Assembly (NCBI GenBank): GCA_964187785.1
Contig: OZ076409.1
Location: 71,302,001 to 71,366,000, forward strand
DNA length: 64,000 bases
Source of the DNA: Amphiscolops sp. MND2022
Lineage: Eukaryota
Reading direction: 5' to 3'
Shown here in pieces: positions 25,732-52,387 of this stretch. Numbering within the stretch: position 1 is the first letter of the stretch; every line of letters starts with the position of its first letter. The notes under the pieces are model-generated. The model did not search any database, was not told the origin of the DNA, and saw only the letters and a list, made by a program, of their open reading frames with translations. The position numbers and the translations under genes were made by a program.

Positions 25732-25806
25732 CTTGCTACGAGCATTGCATAAGAAGTTTGATATTCAACACAATAACTATTTAATCCTTTTAAAATATTT
25801 GCAATA

Positions 25807-25984: not shown

Positions 25985-26098
25985 TATAATATATAATATA
26001 TATATGATATAATAAAGATGATATAATATATATGACGTAATATATATGATATAATATATATGATATGAACTATATAATATAAAAAATAATAATATAGA
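25985..26098. repeat. TA/ATA-rich microsatellite-like tract
   Basis: TATAATATATATGATA-type repeats next to the MITE. Confidence 0.7.
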
Positions 26099-29000
26099 TG
26101 AAGCTTTAAATACTCCCGTCCTTACGTTTTTGATCTTATTCCTACTAGATCGAATGACTTAGTTTAAATAATTTCAATCGATTTCGAGACTTAGAAAAAG
26201 AGTATTGGATATGTTTAACAACTGTTTTCGAAAGAGGACGAAAATTAATTCGATAAAAAAGCATTCTGTTTTTGTGTGAAATAATTAAACGGATTTTCAA
26301 ACTCGACTCGTTTTACTTTCCTTTTTCAACGGAAGTAGTGAACGACATTTTGCTTTGATGAAAAGCATGAAAACTCCCACTTTTGTTTTCCGGTTCAGTA
26401 TGGAAACTTTGAAAACTTATTCTGAAAACATTCATCGAATGCTACTTTTATCTGACGATTTACCTCATTCAAATGGTTCGATTAAAATTACCAACTGCTG
26501 ACAAAAAATATCTTTTGGACATAAAAAGGTAGACCCAAATTTATCGGCGCGGTCTATCTTTTTGGTCGGTGCTTTTCTTAGGAAAAGAGTCAAATATAAT
26601 AATTGCATCCGTCGATGTTTTCTGATACACCTGTCCAATATAGGTCTACAAAAGGTTTTCCAATGTTTGCAATGTTACTTTTGTTTGACAATTTACGTAA
26701 TATATTAAAGCTGTAAAAATTGCTAAGGACCTACTTGCGAGAAGACACAACAGAGAACGGATATAACGTATACCGGCTTTAACGTTTCTTGGAGATTTTC
26801 TCTTTGTACTTAGAAACAAAGTTGCTATTATTCTTAGTCAAAAGAGACCACATGTTTCTAAAATTATTCTAGCTTTGGAATTTTCACTTCAGATTTTGAG
26901 TTGATTTTACTGGAAAACATACAGATACTTCGCAAATTCTGATACGAAAATTAACGAATAATTCCCATACCCATTTTTCAGTTTTCACTTTTTTGAACTG
27001 ACGAACTACCAAAAGTGCTTTTATAAAAACCTACAGTTAAATAACAATTATAAATGGTTTTACTGAGCTCCATGCACTGTCATAAAAGCAATAGATGGTT
27101 GTAGAAAAGTTGATTTGATAAACCTGCACTCTTTTTTCGAAAACGTTGTCTCAATAACTTGTAGCTAATGTAGGTGGTTATTGGTGGCGCAAATCATTCG
27201 TTGCACTGCGGAAAAGCACCAATGACAATCAGTCATTTCTATTTCAATTATGTGACTCAGCACCTAAAATAAAACGTATTATTTGATGAATAGAAGACAA
27301 TAAAATGAAAAAAAAAATGTCTAGTTTGTTCTGATAAAACGAGTTTTGAAATTTTTTTGCACAAATTTTGCATGGTAACTTTCCAATCAAAACTTTTGTT
27401 TGATTTTGAGCCAAATGTTGATATCCGATAACAAGTTGAAAAAACACGAGTTACATTGAGGTTCAAGATTGGAAAGATAAGTTTCGTTTCCTTCAGGTTT
27501 CTCTCGAATGATCCGTATGCTCCGTGATAACTAAGTAGGATTCAATGTAACACTGGTGAAGAAACAATGATTTCAATGCTAAAATTTTACAAGAAGCTCA
27601 CAATATCTTACAAAATAATGTTTTTTTTTAGACTTCTCAAAAGGAATTACAAAGTATTGTGTGAACTGTCTGTCTTCAACCGTTTCTTCAAAGAGTTTAT
27701 CGTTGTTTGTTTTAAAAAATCAGTTGCTAGAGGATGTTAGCCAAGAAGGTATTGCACTTTTTCGACATGCAAATCATATATCACAGTCAATATACCCCAT
27801 AAAACTGAAGCTAGGATACTTTGTATCAAGGAATTTGGTACTCTTTCAACAGGTTTACAAAGATTTTGATCTTAAAAGGTCGAATCAAGTTGAGAACACA
27901 TCTTCAACAATCAGTAATGATTTCGATTTCAATTAGGTGTCTGTAATCAATATCACTCTCACTTTGGTATTTGCATTAATTCATTGCTCATTTGAGTAGG
28001 CGCTTCTTGTAACAAAAAATGACCGACACTCACAGTCAACCACCTAGAAAATATTTATTTTCAAAGGATTCCGCTTGCAAAACTTTGTTAGTACCTTCAT
28101 TAGTCTAAGAACACTCGGATGTTGAATTCTAACAGCTCTGAAGCATATATTAACGGGCGTTTCTCGTTGCGGTAAAAAGAAGAGATAATTTTCTGCTTCA
28201 TACAGAGTGCTGTATACTGTTAACAGTAGCATTTTTAAATAACGGAACTCCATTCAAAAAGCAGCTTACTTCAAACCCAAATTTTTCCGGAATTTTGATT
28301 ATGATCTATTCAAATCTAGAAAATCATTTATTTTGTGGTAAACTTCTTTTTTTATTCTGCAATTACCAACCTTTTCAGTATGGGTCCTCAGCAAATTCAG
28401 ATGAACATTTTTGTAAATTAAATAAATTCTAAGAAATTTTTGCAGCAGACAAATTTTTGTTTTCGTGGCAGGTTACGAGACGTTTGGTTTCAAACTTTTC
28501 CACTTCAGGCAATTGAGTTGCGATATTCTAAAACAATTTGTTGTATCGTGATGGAAGAAAGTAAAAGAAACGGTGGACCTGCGGGTAAAAAGGGCATGCG
28601 AACGAGACGGAAAGTTTTTCAGCAGGCCAGAGCGGAAATCTAAAAAGAAAAATTGACGCAACAGAATGGGAGCGTTGAAAAGAAGGAAAAAAGGTATGCG
28701 AGAAAACTAAGCGAAGCACCAGCGTTGAGAACAGAACAAATAGTTAACTCAAGCGCAGGGTGCAAAAAAGCGCCATCAAAATGTCTAAAACCTCGCTGAA
28801 TATAAACGGTTTTTTTTGACAGAATTTGAACGCGACGATTTTTCACTCTAAGCCATTAACTAAGCTTAGGGACATACTCAAATGACAACCATGTCGTTGG
28901 ATCAAAGTGGCTCGGTGGTCAACCATGTTGATACAAAGCAAGGATCGCGTCGATTTCGCAAACAAATGTAAGCCAGGTGCCATTTTGGAAACTGCTTCAA

Positions 29001-30337
29001 ATTATTCAGATATTGAATTTTGAAGTATTTTAAGGTTTTTGTTAACGGTATCTTGAAACGATGGTTAGTACCGCTGAAAATCTTCAGATCGTCTAAATTT
29101 TCTAAGAAAGCATTGAACAATTAATACTAAGATCTTGTTTTTCATCACGAATATGGCCTAACATTTTAGTGTTGCAAATCTGGGTAGAGGGTTTTTCGGT
29201 ACAGTAATTCATCTAGTTCTTTGAATAATTGTTAACTGTGGTTACATTGTTTTGATTTGAAGGTTTTAGCGGAAACATTTTGTGCAACAACTGAGTATTT
29301 AATCAGCCCATTGGAATGGAACATTCTCTCAATTTGAATTTGACACACGTCGATCAGTAGGATAGTTTTGCATGCTGATATTTCAACAACTGCTAAAAAA
29401 TAGACCCCATGTTCTGCTAATCTTCATATCAAAATGAGGCATTTAAGTTCATTCAAAAAGGATTCCATGACTACTGGACTACTCTTGTTGTGTGTCCTTC
29501 ACAAAACAGCTGCTTTGCGGCAAACAATGATGTTTCATTTAGATACAGTTGGCGAACAGTTTTAACACAAAATGAAAATTGTGAAGAAGTTTGTTTTACT
29601 TGACAAAAAAAACGATAAAAAAGTAAAATGCAAACAAACACACTCACAGGACTTGAAACGTTCAAAAACCGGTGCACTGCAGGATATGTCCTTTGAGCGT
29701 TCTCGGGGGTTTCAGAGCCGAAAAGTAACTGCAGAGAAACCTGGTCTTTTTAAAAAACCTAATTTGACAAACACGGAGACATTTTTGGCAAACATTTACT
29801 GGAAGGCAAAGAACCCTACAAATCGTTCCAATTATGTCCACACAAGAAAGAATAAAAAATATACATGTTTTCGTAAAATTGCAACAGTTTGTGTTAAAAC
29901 CGTGCTGAAGGTGTTAAGTCGAGGTACTTTAATGGAGCGTATGTGACAAGAAAAAATGTGAAAACAAAAGTGTCCGCTCCCTAGGAACTGTCTGAGTGGC
30001 AGATCGTTCCTCATGTAAACTTTCTCAAACCTTTATTGACTGAATTTGTTCATCGGGGGTATGTTTCTACGAGTCAAAACCAACAGTGCACTCGGTTTTT
30101 CAAAATGTATTAAAAAAGCAACGAACATAATGACTTTTCTTCTCTCACTATTGGTCAAATTACGTCGTTCTGCTAGTCGTGATCACTGATTTTTCGATGC
30201 GACAACTCAACTACGTCAATTGGTTGGTTTATCGACCTGAAAATGTATTTACTTTCATTTTCAACACTCGTTTCAACTGACATCTATTTACTCGAACGTG
30301 TTAATTAAATAATGCTACTCCTTTTTAGATACTACAA

Positions 30338-30901
30338 ATGTTGGTGAGACATGGCAACTTTTCATTCAAGTGCTTCTACAATGGGCACAGGAACAATATT
30401 CTCATTCTTGGAGATTCATTATTGAAGACATTATACATGGGCGAGGTTGACGTTTTGTGTTTCCCTGGAGCCAGAACTGACGACGTGTTAGAGTTTTTGA
30501 ACAATCGAGAAATCCGTAATATTGTCCGACGTTACGATAAAGTTGTGTTATTTTTTGGTGGAAATTCTGTGAACGATTTTCCAAAGCAAGGAGTTTTACG
30601 GCAAGCCGAAAGACCTAGTGAGGTGTTCCATAATTTCGTATTTATAATCCAGCAAATAAAAACTCTTCGCAATAGTGTCAAAATTGGAGTTCTGGGGTGC
30701 CCGAATCGCTTCAATGGAACTTGGGAAAAAATCAAAGAGTTAAACGAACTTCTTCAAATATTACCCTGCGAGTACCGGTTTATTGGGCTGGGTACAAAAA
30801 TGAGCTGTAAAGTTGTCATCGATAAAGATCAAGTTCATTTGACCCAATTAGGTATCACATGCCTAAAAGGCATCATCAAACATAAAATTGTCAAATGGTA
30901 A
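30338..30901 (+). CDS. SGNH/GDSL hydrolase (esterase-like) protein, 187 aa
   Basis: Block I ILILGDSL, block II FPGART, block III FFGGNS, block V DQVHL, in the expected order. Confidence 0.75.
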   Translation: MLVRHGNFSFKCFYNGHRNNILILGDSLLKTLYMGEVDVLCFPGARTDDVLEFLNNREIRNIVRRYDKVVLFFGGNSVNDFPKQGVLRQAERPSEVFHNFVFIIQQIKTLRNSVKIGVLGCPNRFNGTWEKIKELNELLQILPCEYRFIGLGTKMSCKVVIDKDQVHLTQLGITCLKGIIKHKIVKW

Positions 30902-31250
30902 ACAAAATTTTTTTCATCCTGTCAATTCTGTTGCAGAATACTTTGATCTTGTGCAATACATAAAGTGAACATTTCAATGCATTAATTGATGTCAAAACAG
31001 TTAAAAGCTTTGATTTGACCGCCTTGGCCACTTTCTTCGTTGCAAAATATTCATATGTTTTCCATTGTCGATAGTTGATTTTGCATACGTGATGGTTTTA
31101 TATTTGTTCCGTTTTTCGGTGACATTGAAGATCTATGTAGACGTTAGAAAACATTTATAGTTCGTTTCTTTCGGTATTTGGCGTTAAATGGACAAGTTTT
31201 ATAAAATGATTTCAGCTTTGATTATTCTTTCAGCATAATGTATATGTAGG

Positions 31251-34200
31251 TTGCGGAACCAGTTACAACTTTCATATAATGCTTATGTTACAATTTTCAG
31301 TGCTTATGTTGAGAAAGAGTTCACAATGCCAAAGCGTAGATTTAAAGAAAGTGATTGCGTGAAAAGTGCCAAAAGGCCATCTGCGAAATGCCTGACCTGC
31401 GGCAGATTCAAAACACAAGCAAATTGTCACAATTGCAACAGACCGAGTCACAGCGCCAATGATGACGATGACGTCTCTGAACTGTCACCTTTACCGCCCA
31501 TAAACGCTGATGAAAGACTTTATCCGGATGTGGATTACTGTTACAGTTGCACGAGACAGTCAACTGACAAATACCCCCTTGTTTTGAATTCGGTTAGCGG
31601 AAAGAATCTGATGCGAAGAAAATTTGGCCCCCAAACAACCAACCAAGAAGTACTTCTATGTTCTTTGTGCAGTAAGTATTTGAATTGTTTGTCCCCTGAG
31701 TACCAAAACAATGCTAAATTTGAACATGCATGGCCGGCTGTATTTTGGTTTCTTCTGTCTGACAAAACCATCCAAGTCAATTTTTGGCAATATATACCAA
31801 TTGAAATGCGCTGCAGTTGGTTACATAGCGCTTCCATTTGTAATTCAATTTTTCGTCAACGTATTGATCTGGTATCTCTGCCAATTTTTGTTGATGTTAC
31901 GTTTCGAAGTCGTGTTTTTAGCCAATTTAAAATTCAATGGTCATCTAGTGAAATGGTGCAAAATGTGAACAATGAATTCTTTCCATTTATAAAATGTCCT
32001 GTCGGTTGTGGGGAGTTCATAGACAACTTTGGTAAAATAGATTTTGTACATTATTTATCCAAATTAGTTCCTGATTTGAACTGTTTCCATGGTGACGCAA
32101 TTGCCTACCTTAGCGGTATGCGAGCCGATTATGAAATTCCTGATTTTATATTTCCTGATGACCCTTTTGCCCCTATTGTCAAACCCTCACTTTTGGTGTC
32201 GGATGATGGAATTTTTCTGTTGACATGCAAGGATCATGATAAAAAAATCAAAGAGCAATATTGTCACCTACCAAAACACCCTTGTGGACGAATTTTCAAT
32301 CCTCTACCGGACCGCTTTGCACCAGCCACTTTGAGTGTCAGATCAGTGAAGCCTTTCAGGGAAAATTTTTCGTCAGCTTCCTACAAAATGGTCCAGTTAA
32401 ATAGCTCTTTTTGCGGTTCCAACACCTGTTTCATTTCACACGGAAAGTCTTTAGATAAAGTTACTGATTGCAGCATGAATCACGAAAGTTTTTATCTGCA
32501 CTGTAGACAAGATACTCAATGTGTTGTTAGAAAACTTGTAGATAAAGGATTTTTGTCACAAGAAACTGCGGAGATTATTCTGAAAAATCAAAATGATCAT
32601 TGGCTTAGGGAGATGCGTGATTTGAAAGAGCATACTAATTTTGTTCCACTCGAAACAGTGGCCTTTATGAGACAAATTAATGAGAGACGTTTCTTTGATC
32701 CCATGACGACAATTATGGAAGACGAGGTGCACGCTGTTGATGCACTATCCGCTGATAATGAACTTATAACCACTGAAAATGGAAGTGAGAACGTTTCTTT
32801 TTCTAATACAGGATCGGACGAAAGTGGTCAAGTTAAACCCCGTGAAACAAGCGGAGCGGCATCGTTCATTGAAAAATTGTTGTTTCCTTGCGCGAAAGTG
32901 TTGGAACGAAATTTAGGTGCACCGCCTACCAGTTATCTCTGTCGATCAGAAAATAGTAAAATTTTGATTGACATGACTGGCAACTCAGTACTTTTTTATA
33001 GCAATTTAATTGAAGCAACTTTGAGAAAAAGTAGATATGGTTGGAAAATTTTATCATGTTTCACTAAGAAAAAAGGTTTGTCTGCCAGTTCATGTTTCAA
33101 GAAGGCTTTGAGGATTTTAGAAGATGATACAGGACACCAAAGTGTTGCGGACATTTTCTCGCAGTTGTCTTTTGTTTCTCTCGTAAATGTTCCCAACAGA
33201 CAAATGCCTATCCAATTCGATACTATCGTTTGCGAAAAAGATTTTGTTGTTGTTGTTAGCTCTTGTTCGAGGCAAAGATCTCTTTTGCCACTTGAAAAAA
33301 CGGCAAAGATCAACAATGTTTTTTTCAAGTTGGTCTATGTTGTTGCACGTAATCGTGACTGTTTTTTCCGTTATAAATTTTGCGATAAATGGTGGAATAT
33401 AACTAAAGCTAACAGACCACAACCAACTGTTCATGATAACATCAACAAATTGTTGGATAAGAACTCTTGGACTATTGCTATTTATGAAAAACTGGAGACT
33501 TCTTTGTCACAAAAAGAATCGAGTCAGGCCACAAATAGTATTTATGGTCAAGATAAGGTTTACTGTAAAAATCATGAACTTCCGTTGACTTGTGATTTTC
33601 CAAAAAATGGTTTCGTTTGTCAATTTGATTGTGAATGTATGCTGAAGTCAGCTTGGAGATGTCCATCTGAGGGTTGTGAAAGTGCTCTATGCAAAAAGCA
33701 TTTTAATACCATTTTGGAGAAGAGTTGGGTGTTACCGCATGAAGGGAAAAACACCCTCAACCAACACCTTGTTGAAGACTTTACTGGTGAAAGCGTTGTC
33801 AATGTGGAGTCCTGCCGTGAAGACATGGAATGTGATCCTTTAACACTTATTGAAATGCCTACTGAGGCTGGATTTGTAGATGACGTGGAGGCTTCGAACA
33901 CTGATACAGGGGCAACTGCAGTTGAGTACCACAGGAACGATGACTTGCAAAGTATTGGTAGTCATATTATAATCAACGGAGTTTGTTCTTTGCTCAATAG
34001 GCCAAAACACCCTTGTCACTTCCGTAAAAAAGATTGGCGGTTTTTGCAATCTTTCGTAGCCAATTGTCCAGACGAATCTGTTCCTTTGACGTTTCCTGAA
34101 GCTGCGTTGTTGCCATCCATATATTATGTAATGCTCAAAAACACGATCGGTGGCGCAATTCCTTCCCCACTTTACAGCCCCGCTATGGCGAAACGTTTCA

Positions 34201-34256
34201 ATTTTGCAAATATTGTTTCACATATTAGATCTCGGTTGAAAACATCAGTCTTCTAA
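31251..34256 (+). CDS. N-terminal half of Helitron-like Rep-helicase (Cys-rich, putative Zn-binding region); joined to 34277-38452 by a 1-nt frameshift
   Basis: 1001-aa ORF (likely start MPKRR at 31326); collinear with the N-terminal half of 55902-62810 (RKFG, AWP, CPxGCxxF, LTCxxH, WxCP..C...CKxH, PLxxPEAxLxPSI). Confidence 0.8.
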   Translation: MRNQLQLSYNAYVTIFSAYVEKEFTMPKRRFKESDCVKSAKRPSAKCLTCGRFKTQANCHNCNRPSHSANDDDDVSELSPLPPINADERLYPDVDYCYSCTRQSTDKYPLVLNSVSGKNLMRRKFGPQTTNQEVLLCSLCSKYLNCLSPEYQNNAKFEHAWPAVFWFLLSDKTIQVNFWQYIPIEMRCSWLHSASICNSIFRQRIDLVSLPIFVDVTFRSRVFSQFKIQWSSSEMVQNVNNEFFPFIKCPVGCGEFIDNFGKIDFVHYLSKLVPDLNCFHGDAIAYLSGMRADYEIPDFIFPDDPFAPIVKPSLLVSDDGIFLLTCKDHDKKIKEQYCHLPKHPCGRIFNPLPDRFAPATLSVRSVKPFRENFSSASYKMVQLNSSFCGSNTCFISHGKSLDKVTDCSMNHESFYLHCRQDTQCVVRKLVDKGFLSQETAEIILKNQNDHWLREMRDLKEHTNFVPLETVAFMRQINERRFFDPMTTIMEDEVHAVDALSADNELITTENGSENVSFSNTGSDESGQVKPRETSGAASFIEKLLFPCAKVLERNLGAPPTSYLCRSENSKILIDMTGNSVLFYSNLIEATLRKSRYGWKILSCFTKKKGLSASSCFKKALRILEDDTGHQSVADIFSQLSFVSLVNVPNRQMPIQFDTIVCEKDFVVVVSSCSRQRSLLPLEKTAKINNVFFKLVYVVARNRDCFFRYKFCDKWWNITKANRPQPTVHDNINKLLDKNSWTIAIYEKLETSLSQKESSQATNSIYGQDKVYCKNHELPLTCDFPKNGFVCQFDCECMLKSAWRCPSEGCESALCKKHFNTILEKSWVLPHEGKNTLNQHLVEDFTGESVVNVESCREDMECDPLTLIEMPTEAGFVDDVEASNTDTGATAVEYHRNDDLQSIGSHIIINGVCSLLNRPKHPCHFRKKDWRFLQSFVANCPDESVPLTFPEAALLPSIYYVMLKNTIGGAIPSPLYSPAMAKRFNFANIVSHIRSRLKTSVF

Positions 34257-34276
34257 CGTCTGGTGATCCGCGTCTT

Positions 34277-37200
34277 TTGCAATTTTATTTCGATTGTTAC
34301 TTCAATTTCCAATCGCTTCGCAGAGATTCGAGATTGGTGTTGAACCGAGGACTGCAAGAATTTACAAAATCAGATAGCGAATGCAATAACCATGCAAAAT
34401 TTAGAATGAATGAGGTAGATAGTCGAAAAATTGTGAATGAACTTGCAGCTGCCATACGATTAGAGGAACCTACATTTTTTCTTACTTTCACACTGAACAT
34501 GTCTCGAATGTTTGGAGTTGCGCCGCTCTTTCAACTCATTGAAAAAAATTGCAAGGGTTTGAGCACTGAACAACAACACATACTCAAGGAAAGTTTCATG
34601 CCACTTTACATGAGACTGTGGGAAAGGGCTGTAGTTTTTTTCATAGAATATCTTGAAAAGTCCACTGAAAAACCTTTGGGTACAGTGACTAACATTTTTC
34701 CGAGGTTTGAATTCCAAACATCCAAGGGAAATGCTCCCCATTTACATGTAATAGTTTGGACCGCTGAATCTAAAAATGACCCAGTTATTTTGAATAAAGT
34801 TTTAGGTTCATTCAGACAACTTCTTCATCAATTAAATGTAGAACTGTTTGACTCATCGAACAAAAACGTAATGTCTCAAGAAGATGTTGATGGTTTATTA
34901 ACTTTGGCAAAGTCCCTTCTCAGTCATAATTGTGAAAAGGCCTCTTATAGATGTCACAAAAAGTGTGACAATTCGGGTAAGATGGTTTGTCGCTTCCATA
35001 TTTTCGAACCTTGTTCTGAAACGTTTTTCAAGTCTGTTGAAAGACCACATACACCTGAGGTTTGGTCAATTTTACACCATCTCGGACTGGCCAGGCCACA
35101 TGACAAGGTGGACGGTGCATTTCACATAGATGAGGTTTTGCAAGGAGGTAAGTTTAACTATGCAGCTGATTACGGCGAAACGTTCTCACCAGTGAATGGT
35201 AAACTGTTTTCATTGCTCCAGTGCAGTATGAATTGCTTACTATGTGACAGAGTAATGTCTGCCAGTTACTTAGCAAAGTACGCTGCAGGAATTGAAGAAC
35301 ATGCTACGGTAAGTATATCCGGTAAGTCTGACACAACTGTTTCGATTTGTGTGAAAAGTTTGAAAAACTTAAAGATTGCTGGTGCTGAGTTAGCTGCGAA
35401 GTCTGAAAAAACAAAGGTTTCAACCAAAAACTGCAGAGTTCTGTCTACAACTGAATGTGTTTGGTCCATGTTAGATCTAAGATATGTTTTTCCAACATAT
35501 GAATGTGTTCATGTTAACACTCTCCCTTTAGAAAACAGGGGCGGTTTTCTTAAACGAAAAAGTCATGCTCCGGTCGCAGACACAGCAGCTGAGGAGGACC
35601 AAGCGTTACATTTTGCAAAGATGCGAATAAGTTTGCAATCAGACAGTCGACGTTATTTCACAATTAATCAAATACGAACTGTTAAGGAGTTTGTGAAGTC
35701 CGGGTTAACAATCGACAAAGTTTCTCTTTTTGCTATGCGTCCGCCAGAGTTACTTTTTGTCAACAACATAGAGTTTTATTACAGACATTTCACTTTCGTA
35801 AAGTTGGACAAAAAATCAACTACCTCGATGTATTCCAATTCATTGCATGATAGCTGTTGGATAGATGCTATCGGGAATATAGTTAAATTGCGCTCTCAAA
35901 GTATTCCTTCTTTCCAACAGTTTCTCTTTCAGTCGAAACAGAGTCCCTCCTCCAGTTATTCTTTTTTCTCGACTTTTTATGAAAATTCATTCTCTACAAC
36001 TTTCAATATCAATCATTTAGTGGACTTTTCAGCTGAAAAGCAAAAACCAGCTGTTGTTGTTTTCCCTAATGTTATACCAAAGCACGTGCCGAACTTTCTG
36101 ATCAGCTTCCTCTTGCAATTTGGACGGTATGAAACGGAATTTGATCTGTTTCAAACTGAAAACATTGCAACTGCGTACGCAAGAGCCGGTTTGATCAAAG
36201 ATGCTGCTTCAGTCAATGATATAGATATCAATGAGTTGCTCAAACTCTTTATACTTCAAAGGGTAATGTTTATACCAGGGTCACATGTATCTCAAGATAG
36301 ACAAATTGTTGACGCCAAAAATGCTTTTTGTTTTTTAAACGAAAGTCAGGAACTGATTGAAACGCCAACCATTGTGTACAATGCATTACAGCAAGAATGT
36401 TCTGAAGAACTGAATCGAAGTGTTACGAGTAAAATCACAAATGTCACCAAACAAATTCATAGTCTCATAACTGATAGTCAAAAACCAACAATTGACTCAC
36501 TAATTGATTGTCAGGCTGATTTTCCTCTGAACTACAACCCGCTACACTCCAATGCCCTTCATTTCAATGCTGAGCAAACCTTCGTACTGCAAAATTTGAT
36601 TCACATCATTGATTCTTTTGTCAATTCAGCGGCTTCGTTCTTCAAATATCAGTTCGTTGTTGGAATGCCTGGCTCTGGGAAAACGTTTGTTACAATACAT
36701 TCTTTGTTTTATGCACTTTGTAAGGGTCTCAATGTTATGGTTACATCGTTAAGCAGCGAAAGAGCCATGCAGTTCTCAGGCATGCACATTCACGATTTGT
36801 TTGGCTTACCAGTTTCTCAAAGTCTCATTGTAGATGAAATTGTGGAAAAAGCTCTACAGAAACTTGATTTTGATTTTGTGAAACTAACTCTTTTGAAGCG
36901 CTTAGACGTCCTTCACTTTGAAGAAATTGGTATGGTTTCGTCTGAAGAGTTTGCTTCAATTGATCTCATCTTGCAGAAAGTGAGAGAAAACTATCAGCCA
37001 TTCGGTGGCGTATTGGTCTTTGCTACGGGTGACCCCAAACAGTTGCCTCCTCCTCAGGGTCGTTTGATTTGGACATCCCCAATAGTCATAACCATAGTTC
37101 AGATGTATGCGTTAAAACAATGTGTTCGGATGGTTGAAAACGTCGGTCGTCAATTTTTAGAAATGTTGTCTAGCTCTGATATAGACGAAGCTGAATGCAA

Positions 37201-38452
37201 AATCATTTTAGATACGTTCGCGCAACAGTGTAGTTTTGTATCACATGATAAATGTCCAATTGATGCAGTAAGAATTTTCGGAACCAGAGCAGCTGAGCGC
37301 AAAGCAGTCGCTCAACAAATCAGTGGACTGCGGTCTTCGGGTATTTTTGTATCAGAAATCATGAGTTCCGATGAGGTGAAAATAAATTCCAGTAGTAATT
37401 GGAAAGAAATATCTAGTGTTCACGTTACGGTGTTGTCAAAATTGTGTTTGGAGCCCCGGATACTTTATTGCTACGAAAATGCCCTTTTCAGATTCACAAT
37501 GAATATGCCTTCTTTGCATGTTTCACAAGGACAATTGTGCGCTTTTTTAAACTTTTTGGGTTCTTTCACTATAGAATTTATGGCTGCACCACCAGGTGTT
37601 CGATGTTTACCACCAAAAGATACTTTCGGCAACTTTTTGTTTGAGGAAAACGGTTGGTTTAGGGTCATTGTTCATAAACAGGCAGGATTCGTACATAGTT
37701 GTCGAGGTTCATCTGTTCGTCGTGTGCAGTTTCCTCTCAAAAACTTCCTTGCAATGACCATTCATAAAGCTATGGGAGAAACAATTGGCAAGATCGTCAC
37801 CAAAATTGATTGTGTTGAACGAGAATATAACTTATGGGAAAAGGAACAACTTTATGTTTTGGCTAGTCGGGTGCAACGTCTAAGTGATTTGACCTTCATT
37901 GGTGAAAAGCAAAACACACTTGATGCAATAAAGTGTCTTCTCAACAAAAAAAATCAGTGGGATAAATACACAGAACAACTTGTGAATACAGCTTCTAATC
38001 AAACACCAGCTGTTTTTGATATTGCCAAATTTTCTCCATTTAGACCACAAAAAATGGAAATACCAAACGAAGCAGTAGGATTCGTCTACCTTTTAGTAAG
38101 CATAAAAGATGTGACATCTTTTTATGTAGGTGAAACTAGTGAATTACGTAGACGGCTCCTGGAGCATAACTCAGGACAAAGTTCTTTTTTCACCTTTCAA
38201 CCGCATCTTCGCCCTTGGGGTTTGCTAGCTTTCGCTACGGGTTTCAGCGACATTGCTGAAGAAAACAAAACCCAACGACAAACTTTAGAAAAAAAAATCC
38301 AGGATGAGATCTTTAAAAAATTTCATGCTTTCAACAGATCCGGATCACCAAATGAAGTGCTCGACGTTTTCCTTGAATGCATTCAACAGGCTAAGTATGA
38401 AAACAACTGTCTACGAGCTGTCATTACTGGATCAATTTTACACTCATGTTAA
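34277..38452 (+). CDS. HUH Rep + Pif1-family SF1B helicase + C-terminal GIY-YIG-like nuclease (Helitron-like transposase, C-terminal half)
   Basis: Rep motifs PTFFLTFTLN, EFQTSKGNAPHLH (HUH), YLAKY; helicase GMPGSGKT, FEEIGM, FGGVLVFATGDPKQLPP, RVQFPL..AMTIHK, QLYVLASR; GIY-YIG-like GFVYLL..FYVGET..RRRLLEHN..RPW. Confidence 0.9.
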   Translation: MQFYFDCYFNFQSLRRDSRLVLNRGLQEFTKSDSECNNHAKFRMNEVDSRKIVNELAAAIRLEEPTFFLTFTLNMSRMFGVAPLFQLIEKNCKGLSTEQQHILKESFMPLYMRLWERAVVFFIEYLEKSTEKPLGTVTNIFPRFEFQTSKGNAPHLHVIVWTAESKNDPVILNKVLGSFRQLLHQLNVELFDSSNKNVMSQEDVDGLLTLAKSLLSHNCEKASYRCHKKCDNSGKMVCRFHIFEPCSETFFKSVERPHTPEVWSILHHLGLARPHDKVDGAFHIDEVLQGGKFNYAADYGETFSPVNGKLFSLLQCSMNCLLCDRVMSASYLAKYAAGIEEHATVSISGKSDTTVSICVKSLKNLKIAGAELAAKSEKTKVSTKNCRVLSTTECVWSMLDLRYVFPTYECVHVNTLPLENRGGFLKRKSHAPVADTAAEEDQALHFAKMRISLQSDSRRYFTINQIRTVKEFVKSGLTIDKVSLFAMRPPELLFVNNIEFYYRHFTFVKLDKKSTTSMYSNSLHDSCWIDAIGNIVKLRSQSIPSFQQFLFQSKQSPSSSYSFFSTFYENSFSTTFNINHLVDFSAEKQKPAVVVFPNVIPKHVPNFLISFLLQFGRYETEFDLFQTENIATAYARAGLIKDAASVNDIDINELLKLFILQRVMFIPGSHVSQDRQIVDAKNAFCFLNESQELIETPTIVYNALQQECSEELNRSVTSKITNVTKQIHSLITDSQKPTIDSLIDCQADFPLNYNPLHSNALHFNAEQTFVLQNLIHIIDSFVNSAASFFKYQFVVGMPGSGKTFVTIHSLFYALCKGLNVMVTSLSSERAMQFSGMHIHDLFGLPVSQSLIVDEIVEKALQKLDFDFVKLTLLKRLDVLHFEEIGMVSSEEFASIDLILQKVRENYQPFGGVLVFATGDPKQLPPPQGRLIWTSPIVITIVQMYALKQCVRMVENVGRQFLEMLSSSDIDEAECKIILDTFAQQCSFVSHDKCPIDAVRIFGTRAAERKAVAQQISGLRSSGIFVSEIMSSDEVKINSSSNWKEISSVHVTVLSKLCLEPRILYCYENALFRFTMNMPSLHVSQGQLCAFLNFLGSFTIEFMAAPPGVRCLPPKDTFGNFLFEENGWFRVIVHKQAGFVHSCRGSSVRRVQFPLKNFLAMTIHKAMGETIGKIVTKIDCVEREYNLWEKEQLYVLASRVQRLSDLTFIGEKQNTLDAIKCLLNKKNQWDKYTEQLVNTASNQTPAVFDIAKFSPFRPQKMEIPNEAVGFVYLLVSIKDVTSFYVGETSELRRRLLEHNSGQSSFFTFQPHLRPWGLLAFATGFSDIAEENKTQRQTLEKKIQDEIFKKFHAFNRSGSPNEVLDVFLECIQQAKYENNCLRAVITGSILHSC

Positions 38453-38856: not shown

Positions 38857-38906
38857 CCCGCACGCAGGCTGTTAAGGCTGCGTGCGGGGTTCCTTTTGGA
38901 CGCTAG
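38857..38906 (+). other. GC-rich hairpin followed by CTAG (Helitron 3'-end-like signal)
   Basis: Stem CCCGCACGCAG/CTGCGTGCGGG (38857-38888), CTAG at 38903-38906. Confidence 0.55.
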
Positions 38907-39314: not shown

Positions 39315-40550
39315 ATGGTTGAAAGTTCCAATAAAAATCCCGAAAAACGTCAGTTTCTTAGCAAGTTGTTTGCAAGTACTTTTGTAGTTTATAAAACACT
39401 TGTTGACAGGTCGAGGTTTCACCACATTTGTTTCCTTTTTTCAGTTGTTGTTTTGTCACCGACATTCTTCATTGCAAACATGAATTCAGGTTTTGCTAGC
39501 TCACTGACCCCTGCGGCAGCTCACGTGTTGTCCTTAGAATATGAAGAAATTTCCTTTGTCAACTTCATTGCTGGCGATGATACAGAGGACAGAAAATTGT
39601 ATTTGGTTTATATTCATGGGAAACGATCCACAGAACCGATAAAATATAAAATGCCAAGTGGTTCGAAATCTAACATTGCTTACAAGCAAAGACTCTTACC
39701 ATTAACATATGACCGGTTTTTCCTATTTGGTGACCCCGCTTCCAACAGAGTCTTGGCTCTTTTCTCATCAAATGAGAAAGAGAGCAGAATATTGACCCGG
39801 TACCACAATTTGATAAAACCCGGTCAGGTTGTCGTCATTATTGAGCCCAGAATAACAGGTACCATGGTTGACTCACAAAATGTTCTAATAACTACAAGCA
39901 ATCCAATTCTCGCAGTCCCAGAAACTGAATGCACATTAACCTTCAATGAGATGCCGCCCTATGACATCGAAAGTGAAACTGACATAAAGTTTTTCCACTT
40001 CATAACAAAAGACCTCAGATTGAAGTTCGTCACGCCGACAACGGATTTATGCTCAGGCTCTTTTTGCGACGGTCAAGCGGCTAAAGAGACAATGTGTGCT
40101 TGCATCGAAAAAACAGGTGTGAAAGAGTGGGGAATAAGAGCTCTTGTGGAATGCACGGAGTTATCTCTGGAGCGAACTTCTCACCAAAAATCCTCGTTTC
40201 TTTCCGTAGCTTTCGCGAAATTGGCAACGGTTGGTCATAGAAACCTCCGCCCGCAGGACGGAATGGCTTTTAATTGGATGACTTTCAAACGAAATATCCG
40301 GGAGTTCATCGAGGCAATCAATAACCCGAATGGGGTACTTCCTGACGCCCAAATGACGCAATTACAGCGAGGATTCAAGGTAATTGGTTGGTTCAAGCCT
40401 TCCAAAATCGATTCAGAGAGCTTTGTGGAAGTTCACGAATTCCACATAATATCGATTACAACGGTCAGTAAGTCGGATGAATTACCTCAGCAAATATTGG
40501 CTTTGCGTTTCCCAAGGCCGCCTGTATGTGATTCTGACGAAAATGAATAG
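39315..40550 (+). CDS. Uncharacterised 411-aa cargo protein (possible OB-fold-like region plus Cys cluster)
   Basis: Long uninterrupted ORF in AT-rich DNA; CSGSFCDG...CAC cluster; start may be M56 (~39480). Confidence 0.65.
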   Translation: MVESSNKNPEKRQFLSKLFASTFVVYKTLVDRSRFHHICFLFSVVVLSPTFFIANMNSGFASSLTPAAAHVLSLEYEEISFVNFIAGDDTEDRKLYLVYIHGKRSTEPIKYKMPSGSKSNIAYKQRLLPLTYDRFFLFGDPASNRVLALFSSNEKESRILTRYHNLIKPGQVVVIIEPRITGTMVDSQNVLITTSNPILAVPETECTLTFNEMPPYDIESETDIKFFHFITKDLRLKFVTPTTDLCSGSFCDGQAAKETMCACIEKTGVKEWGIRALVECTELSLERTSHQKSSFLSVAFAKLATVGHRNLRPQDGMAFNWMTFKRNIREFIEAINNPNGVLPDAQMTQLQRGFKVIGWFKPSKIDSESFVEVHEFHIISITTVSKSDELPQQILALRFPRPPVCDSDENE

Positions 40551-42139: not shown

Positions 42140-42890
42140 TATTATTCTATTTTCTTCTATCCTATTTTCTTCTCTTCTGTTCTGGTTCGTTCTGTTCAAC
42201 TCTCTTTTATTTTTCTATTCTATTCCTTGCTATTCTATTCTATTCTATTCTATTCTATTCTATTTTATTCTTTTCAATTCTATTCTATTCTATTCTATTC
42301 TATTCTATTCTATTCTATTCTGTTCAATTCTATTCTATTCTATTCTATTCTATTCTATTCTATTCTATTCTATTCTATTCTGTTCAATTGTGTTTTTTAT
42401 TCTATTTCACACTAATAAACTGTTTTCTTCTCTTGCATTATCTTTATATCTATTTTTTTTCTATTGGGTTGCTTTTTATTATTTTTGATTCTCTTCGAGT
42501 CTATTCTCTTCTATTTTATAATACTCTATTCTATTCTGTTCTATTCTTTTCTATTCTATTCTCTCCTTTTCTATCATTTTGTATGATATATTTCTTTCTC
42601 ACCATTATCTCTTTTTTTCCATTTCTTTCTATTCTACACTAGCCAATTAGGTTCTCTTCTCTTTTTCTCTGCTGTTTTCTCTCTTTTCTATTGCATTCTT
42701 CTCTAGTTCTCCTAACTATTTTCTCTCTTTTTATTTTTTTCTCTTCCACTATTCTATGCTGTTCTACTCTCTTCTTTTATATTCTACACATTTCTATTCT
42801 GTTCGCTCATCTTTTTTTTGTTCTATTTTTCTCTTCCATCATATAGTTCTCTTTTCTGTTTTATTCTAATTTATTATTTACAATTCTCTT
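42140..42890 (+). repeat. (TATTC)n microsatellite with degenerate pyrimidine-rich flanks
   Basis: Near-perfect TATTC array at ~42231-42380. Confidence 0.95.
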
Positions 42891-42968: not shown

Positions 42969-43551
42969 AAACACGTTTTTCGCCAAGGAGCCATGTTTCC
43001 GGAAAGTAATAAAACTGGTAGTTCAATCTTCTGAAGGGTAAAACGAAATGTAATTGGACTCTGATAAAGGTTTTAGACGACGCTGATTCCGAAAACACAA
43101 ACTGAAAATTGTCAGACATCAGGAACAAACAGTGCTACAGATGGGCGCTCGCCCAGAAATGGCGCTCTACAGAAACAAAAACTAAGGGCTCATATTCGAT
43201 AATTATGTTTTCGGGCTTTTTTAATTGGTTTTCTCGGCTAGTTCACACCCTAGCAACGTGATGAATCCAAGCAAGTATTTGAGACCCGACAAAAGTGCCA
43301 AATCCTATGTTTCTCTCGACTCAAATTGGCCTCCGAGCCCATTTTCAACTGTTAAATACTGTAAAATGGTAATCAATTGAATCAATGTCATCCAGACAAA
43401 AAATATTTGAAGTTAAAGGACGCAAAAGAGCGCAGTCTTCTTCAACATCAAAAACTCTTGCCAACGCCAACCGTCTGTGGGCATGCCGAGGCATGCCCTT
43501 CGACGACGTATGCCCTTTTTATTATCTACGCCCAATCGCGGTAGCTGCTAG

Positions 43552-44942
43552 GTGGTCGGGTATTTTTTTTACTCGTAGATGGCGTTTGCGAGGCTTTGGG
43601 GAGGGCCCCGTGCCGAGCCTGTACCGAAATTTACCACATACCAGAAGTGTCCGATTTAATCGAGATCTCAAAAACTAACCGTTAGAATTCTCTGAATTTT
43701 TGCATGTGGCCCCTAATCAATGAGTAATGAAAAAGTGTAGGAGTGACGGTTGCTGAAAAACTTGTCTTTGTTGCACTTTTTGCGCAATTTTTGTCGCACT
43801 GTTGCGTTTTTTATGTCATTTTCGACTTTTCAAGCAAAAAACTCATAGATGCTTTGTTCCTAGCGTATCAAGTGTGGAGCACGAAAAGTTGCAGCATCTT
43901 CCATTACGTATGCTGAGAAAATTTGGTTGCCCTCGGATTACCCCCCACAGAGATAGAGGGGTGCATCCGGGTATTTTTGACCCCTAAATTTGGGAAATTG
44001 CTAATTTTCGTAATAAAGCCGTAGATTTAGCGCGTGCACACCCTGCTGAAGATTTGTTAGGCATTTTGAGATAGATCCGATGACATGCGTTGAGTTCACC
44101 CCCATCACCCCCTTGACCGGAAATGAACGTTTTTGTGCACTTTCAGACCGGAAGTCTCCATTTTCCCCGGTAAGGAGGCATTGTACGAGCAACTAGCAGG
44201 ATATCAAAAGTGAAGTATAACCTGGGGTCAACTTAATGACCACGTGTTGTCCAGTCATGGGTTTCGCTATGACCGGAAATGGGCTTAAAACCCCCTTTTG
44301 GTAGTATTTTTATCAATTTTTCTTGTGTTTGGTCCACATTCAAGTTGCGTAAGTCAGTTGAACCAGTGAGAGCATAAAATATATATTCACTGCGTAGTCG
44401 TAACTGACACTGCCAGATACCGGAAGTAACCCCCTGTGACCGGAAGAGGTCAATTTTGACCGGAAATGGTCCAAAAAGTAGCGTAAATTCAGTTTTCAAT
44501 GCTTTTTAAAGTCAAGTTATTAGTATTTTTCGATTTGAATGCTTGTTTCCACGCAAAAAGCTAACATCGTTGCATGTTTTGCTGAAGATCGGAAAAGTGA
44601 TCACCATTATCACCCCCGATAGCCTTTCAAGTTGACCTTTGGTCAATCTTGAAGGCTATCTGTTCTGAAAACGAAAAATAGTGGAATTTTGTTTCCTCCT
44701 TTCTCTTGATATTTTTCCTTCAAGTCAATTTGTCAAAAGAAATACATTTGTTCAACTGAGTGATCTGAATCCTGTCCAGAGGTGTCACCCGGACGAATAC
44801 CATTTCAAGCTGAAGTACACAAATCAGGGTACTATTAGACATCACACACTCCTACCAACTCCCACCGTCTGTGGGCATGCCGAGGCATGCCCTTCGACGA
44901 CGTATGCCAAATAGCGCTACATGGCGCAAACTTGTCCGCTAG
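43552..44942 (+). mobile_element. Non-autonomous cassette 11 (type C)
   Basis: Junction-bounded; nearly identical to 9803-11189. Confidence 0.75.
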
Positions 44943-46209
44943 GTGGTCGGGAATTTTTTTTCTGCTCAATTCTTTGCCAACTGGGGGAGGGGCCCCTGGT
45001 GGCTGTTACCCGAAATACATACCTACCCAAATCGTCCGCTCCGGATACGATCTCAAAACTGAGCCACACAATTTTCCTGAAACTTTGCATGTGGGCCTAA
45101 AATGAGAATGTAAGAACAATGATATAGGCGTTATTCCTGAATTTTTTCAAAAAGTTGGTCAAAAACGCAAAAAATGGGTCAAAATTGACCTCTTTTTCAA
45201 CTTTTTTATTTTTGAGAGCCCATATCTCGGAACGAGGTGGCCGTAGCGGGCCGCATAAGGACTCCGTTTTTGCTGGGCACTTGATGAGGAGTGCGTGGAC
45301 AAATTTTCGTCCAAATCGAAGTAAAATTGACTGAGTAATGAGTGATTTTTTGGCGACCTTTTTTGCGAACCCTATTGTATCTCTGCCATTTTCCGCCAAA
45401 ATTTTCAAAAGTGGTTCTACAGGAGGCAACCCCTGCCCAATTTTCTGCAAAACAAAACCATTTGGCCCTAAATACGAGGTTTCAGCGTTCTAGCAATCCC
45501 CGGTGAAAAGTTATAGGACTTAGAAATTTGTCAGTGAAACGCAAAATTTGTAAATTCAACTTCCGGTGCCCAAAAGTCACAAAACTTTCACACAACTAGT
45601 ATTGCAAGTGAATGCATGTAGAAAGTACTGAAATAGACGAGAAAAATGAGCTATAGAACGACTCTCTACCTTAACCTGACGTTGACTTATGATGTTTTGA
45701 ATGTGAGCATCCTATCTGATTTTAATGTCAAAAATGAGATTTTGTAAGTCATGTCTCATCAAAAACTCATCGGAATACGTTCAATCATCCCCATAGCTGT
45801 TCAATTGCCGTGGCTTAGTACAGCAACGCCATTGAATGTCTTTGGACCCATTTTGAAAATTATCGATACCGTCTTATTCGTCCGATATCACGAAACAGTT
45901 GAGTACATTCCATCTCCCTCTTTGGGGGGAGATGAGAATGTACTCGCTAAAGAGCTGGTACAATGGCCCATATTTGTTTTTAACTGACGCTTCTCATGAT
46001 ATTTCACACGTACACCTCTATTTGGTAACACATTTTCCTTTGCACCATGTTTATATAAGCTAAACCACTTCTTTACCTTACTACTTCTACTCAAACATCA
46101 CCAACGTAAACGCCACATACTCGCATCAACGCCCACCGTCCGTAGGCATGCCGAGGCATGCCTTTCGACGACGTATACCTAGTGTACGCGTTAGCGCGGT
46201 AGCCGCTAG
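44943..46209 (+). mobile_element. Non-autonomous cassette 12 (type D, ~1.27 kb)
   Basis: Junction-bounded; shares the CACAACTAG.ATTGCAAGTG block and internal hairpin with types A/B. Confidence 0.75.
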
Positions 46210-48771
46210 GTGGCCGGGAATTTTTTTTCTGCTCAAATCTTTGCCAACTGGGGGAGGGGCCCCTGGTGGCTGTTACCCAAATTACATACCTACCCAAATC
46301 GTCCGCTCCGGATACGATCTCAGAACTGAGCCACACAATTTTCCTGAAACTTTGCATGTGGGCCTAAAATGAGATTGTAAGAACAATGATATAGGCGTTA
46401 TTCCTGAATTTTTTCAAAAAGTTGGTCAAAAACGCAAAAAATGGGTCAAAATTGACCTCTTTTTCAACTTTTTTATTTTTGAGAGCCCATATCTCGGAAC
46501 GAGGTGGCCGTAGCGGGCCGCATAAGGACTCCGTTTTTGCTGGGCACTTGATGAGGAGTGCGTGGACAAATTTTCGTCCAAATCGAAGTAAAATTGACTG
46601 AGTAATGAGTGATTTTTTGGCGACCTTTTTTGCGAACCCTATTGTATCTCTGCCATTTTCCGCCAAAATTTTCAAAAGTGGTGCTACAGGAGGCAACCCC
46701 TGCCCAATTTTCTGCAAAACAAAACCATTTGGCCCTAAATACGAGGTTTCAGCGTTCTAGCATTCCCCGGTGAAAAGTTATAGGACTTAGAAATTTGTCA
46801 GTGAAACGCAAAATTTGTAAATTCAACTTCCGGTGCCCAAAAGTCACAAAACTTTCACACAACTAGTATTGCAAGTGAATGCATGTGGAAAGTACTGAAA
46901 TAGACGAGAAAAATGAGCTATAGAACGACTCTCTACCTTAACCTGACGTTGACTTATGATGTTTTGAATGTGAGCATCCTATCTGATTTTAATGTCAAAA
47001 ATGAGATTTTGTAAGTCATCAAAAACTCATCGGAGTACGTTCAATCATCCCCATAGCTGTTCAATTGCCGTGGCTTAGTACAGCAACGCCATTGAATGTC
47101 TTTGGACCCATTTTGAAAATAATGGATACCGTCTTATTCGTCCGATATCACGAAACAGTTGAGTACATTCCATCTCCCCCTTCCTTCTCGTTTTAATTTT
47201 AGTAGTGCAACGACTAAAAAATTGATGTCAGTATCTAGTACATATGGAATGTTTCCCATGAGCATATCAGCCAACAAGCCGAAATGTCCTTTTCGCGTCA
47301 TATGGCACACTGGAGTTTCACATAGTAAAAAAAATACTCCATCGGAGATTTTGAAAAAAAATAAATTGAAGCACGACTGTAATTGAAACGTAAGAATTTT
47401 TTTCCGTAAATTTAGCAGCACGATTTGAGTAGTTCACGCCGAATCGAGCCCGAAGTTAGGATTATATTAGGCTCCTCAAAGTCACACTGGAAATGATTTA
47501 AATTTGCTGACCGGAAATTATTTCAGTGATGAACGAAATTTCTGTTGCCGCACCTGCATTTTCAAAAGCATACATTTGAGGCCGAAAGTTTTGGCAAACC
47601 AAAAGATATTGTAACAAAAAACCAAAAGGAGTTTCGTTGTCTACTAATCCGTTGCATAGCCTCTGTTTCGCAATCAGACGATGATTCGGACTGGCATTAT
47701 GTGAATCAGCGTTCTTATATTCTTCTTATGAAAAATGAACAGCGTGATACGTTTTTTCCGGTCATTTTTGAAAAAATCGTTGCAAAACCTGTTTTACAAA
47801 GTCTTTTGGTCTCAAGTGTATGATCTTTCATCAATTTAAAAAAAACTCGATTTAATAAAACTTTATATAAAATGATACCAAATAACTCCTTTTTGAGAAA
47901 TGGAAGGCCCCTTATAAATGTTGAGATTTATACCTTATGAAAGACTTTAGATGGTGTTCAATTTTTGAGCACGAAGTGTAAAATATCGATAATCAAAAGG
48001 CCGGGAACGGACAATGTCGTCGCAATATCGAAAGCTCAAAATTGTAAAAGAAAGAATCTTTGTGTGTTTTGAAACTTCTGTCGGTTGCAAATTATAAAGA
48101 AATTGAAAAGAGGAACCTGAGAGACTTTGAATACTTCAAAACACGTTTCAAAATGAGATTTTCGATTAGTTTCACAAGGCTGAAAAACGTACCCGAGACG
48201 AATCTTCGGGAATTTTGACATCCATTGTGCCACATAATATCGAAACAAACGAAGAAGAAACCCTCAGGTGCAATCCAAAAAGTTTCCAAAAAAGTCGCAT
48301 AGTGCTGAAAAAAAACGGAGTGAAAAACAGCAAAATGGAATCCTTCGTAGGTCTTTGAGGTTTTGGACGTCAAAGTTTTTGTTTTGAACGATGTTCTGGC
48401 GCTTTGAGTATGTTCTGGATGTCCGGTGTTCAAGTCGATGTTGTTGAACAAATATACTGAAAGTAAACCTTACGCGTCTAAAAGATACCCACTGTAAGAA
48501 TCGGGCACTTTTCTTTAAGAGCGCGGACTAAAAACACAAACCATGAAATGCTCTGTTGGGCAAAATTTCTTATTCAGGAATTAGTTGAAACTTCACATGG
48601 AAATTCAGCACTATATCTATTACTTAATCAAAAATTAGGTAAAAAGTATTGAACACAAAATTACGAAAAACATATCACACAGTGTCAAAAAATGTTAAAG
48701 GGGAGACTTCAGAATTGTCCGGTTTTGTGTGTTACGTTCGAAAAAAAAACACTTGGCAAAAACTTGGTTGC

Positions 48772-49060
48772 GTTTCCCAGGTTATCGTTCAGAACAATTT
48801 GAACAAAAAATATACTGAGAACTTCGATTATATATACTTCATTTATTTCATCTCACATTCATCCACATTCAGTTCAAAGGTTATCGTTCAGAACAATTTG
48901 AACAAAAAACATACTGAGAACTTCGATTAAATATACTTCACTCATTTCATCCCACATTCATCCACATTCAGTTCCCAGGTTATCGTTCAGAACAAACTGA
49001 ACAAAAAATATACTAGGATCTTCGATTAAATATACTTCATTCATTTCATCCCAGCTTCAT
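48772..49060 (+). repeat. Three tandem ~99-bp repeats
   Basis: GTTATCGTTCAGAACAA at 48781, 48880, 48979. Confidence 0.9.
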
Positions 49061-49188
49061 CCTGGAGGTATCCTTGCTAAAAAATAATTAGAGATGTTTT
49101 AGTAAAACGTTATATCCAAACTTTGAAAATGTTGAAAATGTTACATCCGAACTTTGATGCTGTCAAATTATTATATAAATCTAAATCG

Positions 49189-49460
49189 TAAACTAAGAGG
49201 GTTAGAAGATTTTTAATGACATATTTGGAATCGTATAGAGGGGGCGCCAGGGGGCGCGCGGCTGACCAATATCCATTTGGCGCAACATGTGATGACGCTG
49301 GAGGCACGGCCGCTCAATTACACTACTGATGACAAGGTGTTGAGCCTCCAACGTCATCACATGTTCAGCCAAATGGATATTGGTCGGCCGCGCGCCCCCT
49401 GGCGCCCCCTCTATACGATCCCAAATATGTCATTAAAAATCTTCTAACCCTCTTAGTTTA
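49189..49460. repeat. Long inverted repeat (foldback) 2, ~117 bp arms
   Basis: TAAACTAAGAGGGTTAGAAG...GCTGGAGGC is the reverse complement of GCCTCCAACG...CCTCTTAGTTTA with few mismatches. Confidence 0.9.
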
Positions 49461-52200: not shown

Positions 52201-52387
52201 TCCGAGCTCGAAAGATTTTAAATAGACCTGCACGTATGTTACAGCCGCCTTTAACAATTTTTTCGTTTGTTATATCATGTTTACGGACATTTTTTGATAA
52301 TTTGATAACATTTCGGCTGGTTAACTTTTCGGCTCTGCGTGTATGAAGCTGCAAAAGTGAAAGGTACGTTTAAACGGCCTTTCATTG

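Follow-up and report, generated by a model that had tools for sequence, protein, structure and literature searches.

An SLX1-type GIY-YIG domain fused to the Rep-helicase of a likely third lineage of Helitron-like elements

Two related Rep-helicase genes, here called elements A and B, lie in the window, a stretch of 64,000 nucleotides from Amphiscolops sp. MND2022 (contig OZ076409.1), and the 3' end of element A raises the question of what a further nuclease does on a transposase of this kind. A preliminary description had proposed that a GIY-YIG-like nuclease resembling SLX1/UPF0213 is fused to the C-terminus of a Helitron-like Rep-helicase, that such a domain is unexpected in Helitrons and that it could open hairpin junctions and thereby explain a targeted stacking of elements; it had also suggested an HMM search with the tail and a survey of Rep-helicase proteins for GIY-YIG. 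Here we address the identity of the domain, its distribution among the relatives and its possible role.

Table 1. Coordinates of the features in the window
Feature	Position	Strand	Details
Non-coding block with long palindrome	25332-26548	.	arms 25502-25610 and 25623-25731
SGNH/GDSL-esterase-like ORF upstream of A	30329-30901	+	PF13472 E 4e-4, 21.3 bits, cutoff 32.9
Element A, front ORF	31239-34256	+	1005 aa, first ATG 31326; family-specific N-terminal half
Element A, rear ORF	34229-38452	+	1407 aa; HUH-Y2 Rep, Pif1-type helicase, GIY-YIG
Element A, motifs			HUH 34739, YxxKY 35267, Walker A 36671, Walker B 36920; helicase about 36566-37870
SLX1-type GIY-YIG nuclease domain with C-terminal helix/strand	38078-38452	+	Pfam span 38078-38305
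Element A, active-site codons			Y1287 38087, Y1299 38123, G1301 38129, R1309 38153, H1313 38165, E1354 38288
Element A, candidate right end	38857-38906	+	hairpin 38857-38888 (-20.7 kcal/mol), CTAG 38903-38906
Partner gene, predicted OB-fold ssDNA-binding protein	39315-40550	+	411 aa, conserved Cys cluster
Homologous block upstream of B	49041-50065	.	palindrome arms 49175-49305 and 49344-49474
Element B	55707-62810	+	open 2367-aa Rep-helicase of A's family, 32% identical to A
Element B, candidate right end	63252-63298	+	hairpin 63252-63288 (-19.7 kcal/mol), CTAG 63295-63298

The fused domain and the gene that carries it

The suggested HMM search recognised the tail above the Pfam cutoff. PF01541 matches residues 1284-1359 of the 1407-aa frame (E 2.2e-6, 28.3 bits, cutoff 22.6), and the last 140 aa alone reach E 6.8e-8 (33.1 bits). 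Sequence matches of the tail in the PDB were UPF0213 (1ywl, 2.5e-5) and Slx1 (4xlg, 1.5e-4). When a profile of 20 family tails was compared with solved structures, SLX1 and At-HIGLE (5e-15 to 2e-12) came ahead of UPF0213 (2e-7), while T4 endonuclease II (0.04) and UvrC (0.92) were weaker; SLX1 and At-HIGLE are the closest solved relatives of this family profile, including the RPW, GF and E-x-x-W motifs. All six active-site positions are intact in element A, which combines the Pfam match with the Tyr, Tyr, Arg, His and Glu of a GIY-YIG active site and thus belongs to this superfamily. From GIY-YIG chemistry we take Y1287, Y1299 and H1313 to have active-site roles. Y1287, Y1299, G1301, R1309, H1313 and E1354 align to positions 14, 26, 28, 36, 40 and 79 of Slx1, where Arg36 and Glu79 are named active-site residues (PMC4407285). 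The C-terminal RING of cellular SLX1 is absent from element A, as the ORF stops ~50 aa past the Glu and Pfam gave no RING match.

An AlphaFold model of helicase and tail was of high quality (mean pLDDT 90, pTM 0.88, GIY part 90-96). Since fold searches with this 650-aa model returned lists filled by the Pif1 helicase part, the assignment of the GIY fold comes from sequence profiles. At this level, positions 38078-38452 are confirmed as an SLX1-type GIY-YIG domain in an in-frame fusion to the HUH-Y2 Rep and Pif1 helicase; the motifs quoted in the preliminary description lie past the final helicase motif in a frame uninterrupted by a stop, and both the nuclease assignment and the C-terminal fusion proposed there hold.

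The 1407-aa frame is the rear half of a gene of ~2400 aa which is split by a frameshift near 34240. Front and rear ORFs match the halves of continuous proteins of 2466-2510 aa (34-35% and 48-49% identity), and the ORF runs across the break position in the relatives P0014-P0016 and P0061. A programmed frameshift at 34240 was considered and rejected, as these four close relatives are continuous there. The copy of element A is probably frameshifted and non-autonomous. Its N-terminal half (~1000 aa) contains Cys/His clusters and several Trp and Pro motifs that are conserved family-wide, and gave no match in Pfam.

Downstream of the Rep follows the fused Pif1-family helicase, for which a fold search with the model found the fold of Pif1 and Helraiser (7lcc: Z 21.4, rmsd 3.7, 442 aligned). 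By sequence, the match to Helraiser reached E 1.4e-4 only, ranked below bacterial Pif1, and the Pfam Helitron model catches element A poorly (14.7 bits, cutoff 28.9). The GIY-YIG tail of element B (from about 62472) is homologous to the family profile (E 1.7e-10) and catalytically decayed, with the Glu alone kept of the six active-site residues. A search of the window against Rfam gave 0 matches.

Distribution of the fusion and placement of the family

The survey of relatives was performed with a phmmer query of 1200 aa of Rep and helicase that ends before the nuclease and is thus free of GIY. It yielded 314 cluster representatives at E <=1e-30, the best 150 of which were analysed; after dropping 28 without a helicase end and 12 with tails below 90 aa, 110 complete relatives remained. 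Among these, from the best 150 of 314, a GIY tail was found in 108 or 109 of the 110 with two different profiles, where the profile giving 109 was built mostly from metagenome loci and scored 0/110 on reversed tails. Of 17 long relatives picked by hand, 16 gave a Pfam GIY-YIG match above the cutoff, and all 20 of 20 family tails gave one at E <=0.01. No GIY tail was found in 121 Helentron proteins, which came from bivalves and one fish, or in 11 Helitron1 ORFs, five of which extend to the helicase end. The view that the domain is unexpected in Helitrons was thus borne out for the Helentron and HLE1 proteins tested, and by its distribution in these sequences the fusion is a trait of the lineage and not a one-off capture.

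All six active-site residues are kept in 81 of the 110 tails at ~25% overall identity, and 23 of the 110 retain three or fewer (both among the best 150 of 314); on a 90-sequence tree the active site died in at least four separate changes. Conservation of tail and helicase is similar in intact pairs (e.g. 51 vs 56%), whereas in the B sublineage the tail diverges faster (54 vs 72%, 20 vs 45%). Decayed sublineages retain the domain, including open frames of 2350-2600 aa with several diverged copies.

Clustered at 50% identity, the lineage forms at least 150 clusters; a metagenome scan gave 69 loci. The few named hosts are Styela clava (XP_039257388.1) and, in an Atlas cluster with few recorded members, mostly diatoms. 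Some relatives carry extra domains. An OTU protease passes the cutoff in P0021 and gives weak matches in P0124, P0077 and P0062, and P0110 has a Ulp1/C48 protease downstream of GIY-YIG. Frame breaks recur at profile positions of about 490 (L006, L012, L051, L053), 1050 (L008, L018) and 1420 (L051, L053, L059, L068), and are probably common introns. Pieces of the transposase gene are copied downstream at L051:12537-12655 and L053:16081-16198, both inverted, and at L055:8043-8229. In L044 a 177-bp direct repeat (93%) lies at 7401-7577 and 16121-16294 on either side of the transposase gene; the second copy adjoins 3'-UTR-like sequence, as in an internally deleted derivative, and the partner gene described below is upstream there.

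All 90 of 90 family Reps have the HUH motif, and the tyrosines are found in 89 and 88 of these. In hhalign the Rep profile of the family scored 98.5% against both HLE1 and HLE2, which scored 99.4% against each other. The family therefore shares with Helitrons a homologous HUH Rep with two catalytic tyrosines, and it differs from Replitrons, which have a Y1 Rep and no fused helicase (PMC10288648). In a Rep tree (38 family, 11 HLE1 and 8 HLE2 sequences) the family forms one side of a branch with SH-aLRT 100, and in a helicase tree with five prokaryotic Pif1-type outgroups the family branch has a support of 100 (100/100 under a mixture model with 32 rows). In both trees it is a clade separate from HLE1 and from HLE2, the latter being represented by Helentrons only.

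The HLE1 references were unannotated contigs in prokaryotic bins, found as 28 loci in a motif scan of genome contigs; the motif was our own choice, which we assume to be typical of the Helitron1 Rep. Two scans of this kind in viral contigs found no Helitron1 references. These 28 contigs filed as prokaryotic (L070-L097), several with full Rep-helicase ORFs, are probably eukaryotic contamination of the bins.

Because the sister relation to HLE1 in the helicase tree is weak (95/68), the outgroup there splits into more than one clade, long branches meet in the Rep tree and the references are thin (11 and 5 HLE1 contigs, 8 and 5 bivalve/fish Helentrons, with Helitron2, proto-Helentron and HelenSM92 left out of the trees), a third Helitron-like lineage beyond the sampled HLE1 and HLE2 is likely but not settled for the family of A and B. 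Taken together with the transposase architecture of Rep, Pif1 helicase and GIY-YIG, it is a reading in which we have high confidence.

With Helentrons the family shares a Rep-Pif1 protein with a C-terminal nuclease, its size of 2400-2900 aa and a separate RPA-type gene (PMC4067079), as well as an OTU domain in some members. The nuclease fold, however, is GIY-YIG and unrelated to AP: in the two window proteins and 17 relatives Pfam matched neither DUF6570 (PF20209) nor the AP endonuclease families PF03372 and PF14529 (Exo_endo_phos), and GIY-YIG takes that position. The HUH motif differs too, being E[FYL]Q-x(2-7)-N-x-x-H-x-H instead of EFQQRGSPH. The likeness to HLE1 and Helraiser consists of the HUH-Y2 Rep with Pif1 helicase, an RPA-like accessory gene (PMC5876387) and, as a candidate right end, the hairpin and CTAG behind both window copies, whereas the family protein exceeds Helraiser by ~900 aa, its N half is unrelated and it ends in GIY-YIG; CTAG is followed by C in both window copies, and no 5' TC end was identified.

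A GIY-YIG domain also travels in HelenSM92, an HLE2 family of the moss Sphagnum, where it was reported as 'captured and transposed' (Li et al. 2024, PMC11417382), the one place in the main text of that article which names GIY-YIG. HelenSM92 differs in being described as a single HLE2 family that has terminal inverted repeats and targets TT. To SLX1 and At-HIGLE the element domain is alike in its active-site residues and motifs (PMC4407285), but it has no RING, is fused to a helicase in a mobile element and has no known SLX4-like partner. The main texts of PMC8788227, PMC4067079, PMC10288648 and PMC12130899, as far as accessible, do not mention GIY, and we found no description of a Rep-Pif1-GIY-YIG lineage in literature that excluded most subscription papers and Repbase Reports. 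By its sequence the family works like a Helitron, yet it departs from HLE1 and from HLE2 in defining features of each group that were tested.

Candidate right ends, partner gene and neighbouring repeats

The hairpin-CTAG sites behind A and B are candidate right ends, judged from their sequence. Their hairpins, 450 and 484 nt past the stops, are the two strongest in 22.3-64 kb, and only 3 of the 115 plus-strand CTAG sites have a hairpin of <=-9 kcal/mol just upstream. The base after CTAG is C in A and B, and T and C in the copies of L055, where two copies of a 134-nt repeat diverge directly past a CTAG 235 nt after the stop. Among metagenome loci, 0 of 29 have a hairpin with CTAG within 700 nt past the stop, and at -6 kcal/mol the count of 2/31 falls within the shuffles. 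A hairpin with CTRR (-12 kcal/mol, a threshold set after looking) occurs in 3 of 29 loci. Five of six such sites in about 300 kb lie within 500 nt of a stop (p 2e-6, post hoc threshold), a value that mostly measures hairpins because CTRR is common. In five cases (A, L001, L003, L018 and L055) the partner gene is found on the far side of the candidate right end. A simple model with one terminator does not account for this, which would call for bypass of the terminator, a further end or an arrangement in tandem. L037 and L038 share 9.5 kb which starts at CTGG/GTAG and CTAG/GTAG, respectively, and both flanks end in CTRG.

Each element is preceded ~5-6 kb upstream by a palindrome block (109-131 nt arms), though the proteins are only 32% identical. 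The two blocks are colinear, at 72% and 76% over two stretches, and may represent a left-end region or a common landing repeat. A small inverted-repeat element (25810-25985) lies inside the first block, and the relative L033 has a 350-bp palindrome ~700 bp upstream of its ORF. The SGNH/GDSL-like ORF upstream of A is only a candidate component of that element. A frameshifted stretch upstream of B (about 51850-52340) has SGNH/GDSL-like motifs, presumably GDS and GxND-like; the two SGNH-like stretches gave no BLASTP alignment to each other, and the one upstream of B no Pfam match. Further repeats lie at 42148-42872, 48774-49062, 52386-52688, 52835-53181 and 63409-64000, and the repeat types of the window include a pyrimidine-rich microsatellite, tandem repeats of ~99, 114 and 296 bp and a degenerate TTAGG-like tract.

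ORFs of 400-500 aa from one family recur beside the transposase gene in metagenome loci, and a profile of 16 of them, with the window left out, matched the window ORF with E 8.4e-19; by this profile the window has no second copy. The partner is present in 20 of 25 non-redundant metagenome loci with at least 1.5 kb past the stop (16 that built the profile and 4 new), with 10 convergent, 9 downstream on the same strand and 1 upstream. Eight of eight partner proteins gave 0 matches in Pfam. The best matches of the partner were RPA (E 5e-5), MCM10 (E 2e-4) and baculovirus LEF-3 (E 6e-5); a fold search with the middling model (pLDDT 65) gave MCM10 (Z 8.9, rmsd 2.9, 107 aligned) in a list filled by OB folds, and the Atlas gave weak recognition of POT1, CTC1 and MEIOB. 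The partner is thus predicted to be an OB-fold (RPA/MCM10/LEF-3-like) single-strand-binding protein, in parallel to the RPA gene carried by Helitrons and Helentrons (PMC4067079, PMC11417382).

Head-to-tail arrays occupy positions 1-22330 and 43386-47182, in which four non-coding unit types of about 2.18, 2.38, 1.39 and 1.27 kb (range 1.27-2.39 kb) are mixed. Their 13 junctions share a hairpin ... CTAG/GTGG, and the 30-40 nt before the CTAG are specific to the upstream unit. The units are probably stacked non-autonomous rolling-circle elements, for which no autonomous partner was found in the window.

Possible roles of the nuclease

The SLX1 type of the domain, its C-terminal fusion and its absence from the canonical Helitrons tested make a structure-selective role plausible. 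Our best explanation, which we favour with moderate confidence, is a rolling-circle Helitron-like transposon in which the nuclease would trim branched intermediates or resolve them; for the branch-processing role itself, drawn by analogy, we regard the chances as evenly balanced. The transposase of ~2400-2600 aa would combine a Cys/His-rich N half, HUH Y2 Rep, Pif1 helicase and GIY-YIG, with a separate OB gene beside it. For Helraiser, a left-end nick, strand displacement, a hairpin-terminated second cut, circles and integration have been described (PMC5876387). By extension from this HLE1 element, the Rep would nick the left end and stay attached, the helicase would peel off one strand, and the hairpin would end the copy at CTAG, which would then be joined, via circles, to the target. 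The OB-fold partner, judged by its fold, would coat the displaced strand. The substrates of Slx1 are Holliday junctions, flaps and splayed arms, while nicked, gapped and plain duplex DNA is spared (PMC4407285), and by this affinity the helicase-tethered nuclease may cut branched DNA at the donor or the target, such as a D-loop, a fork or a 5' flap. The nuclease would be an aid apart from the core chemistry, helpful but dispensable in some sublineages, because open-frame sublineages repeatedly lose the active site yet keep the domain.

The domain might instead initiate or guide insertion by nicking duplex DNA of the target or the donor. It would then be a convergent counterpart that replaces the AP endonuclease of Helentrons, which sits at the same position and has been hypothesised to act in nicking and target preference (PMC4067079). 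Penelope-like elements employ a GIY-YIG endonuclease (PMC6431247), and the CTRG ends of the flanks of L037 and L038 would agree with such a role. We nevertheless consider it unlikely, since the nearest relative is the structure-selective SLX1, the scores of homing-type models stay far under the cutoff (TIGR01453, 17 bits vs 56), a Rep with both tyrosines needs no helper to nick and dead sites arose repeatedly on the tree. Retention of the domain in decayed sublineages, among them B and the open 2350-2600 aa frames, speaks for a DNA-junction-binding module or a structural helicase cap with incidental cutting; conservation of all six residues in most tails of the survey, and the faster divergence of the B-sublineage tail, as relaxed constraint would predict, make this quite improbable.

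Equally improbable to us is an integrated plasmid- or virus-like rolling-circle replicon, consisting of a Rep-helicase-resolvase with its own SSB. The compact two-gene replication module, the viral LEF-3 as best viral fold match of the partner and the many relatives on 8-15 kb contigs would fit such a replicon. However, no relatives were confirmed in IMG/VR or GTDB (weak negatives, with 2-6 peptide patterns per scan), loci of at least 5.5 kb have no exact terminal repeat, no capsid family was found among 30 neighbouring ORFs, and several diverged, broken copies lie on contigs of 0.1-1.5 Mb. Plasmid and phage sets gave partial Pif1-type matches only.

In favour of the proposal that the nuclease opens the array hairpin junction and drives targeted head-to-tail stacking are the common junction of the four unit types and the hairpin with CTAG that both elements have; the starts of L037 and L038 at CTGG/GTAG and CTAG/GTAG resemble the array junction and are the lone hint to stacking from outside the window. 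Apart from this resemblance, this part of the preliminary description found no support, and A is not bounded on both sides by array junctions. BLAST of the units against A and B gave no match, the array 5' ends had no credible match in the flanks of A and B, and of 20 local alignments of unit ends with element flanks, 18 scored no higher than the maximum reached by shuffled sequences and 2 passed that maximum by 1-3 points. Neither CTAG behind the element hairpins leads into an array unit, and the nuclease of the open-frame neighbour B is decayed. Non-autonomous elements normally share ends with their autonomous partner (PMC11417382), and ordinary Helitrons also form head-to-tail junctions and tandem arrays (PMC5876387). 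We therefore regard this mechanism as highly improbable.

Overall, our data point to a widespread and apparently previously undescribed third Helitron-like lineage. Present classifications hold two Helitron groups, and a third would mean that a class of mobile DNA in marine eukaryotes has been overlooked. The family also presents a second, independent nuclease fusion at the same end of a rolling-circle transposase. A bolder version, which we think rather unlikely, is a third major rolling-circle class as deep as HLE1 and HLE2, ranging from diatoms to tunicates, that has Rep, helicase, branch nuclease and its own SSB and inserts beside its own CTRG/CTAG end in the manner of IS91; if true, such insertion would stack the class and its non-autonomous dependants head to tail, like the arrays of the window. 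The role of the Helentron endonuclease is given as undetermined in the available text of PMC8788227. In the present lineage intact and inactivated forms of the domain occur naturally side by side, and the role of the nuclease is therefore directly testable.
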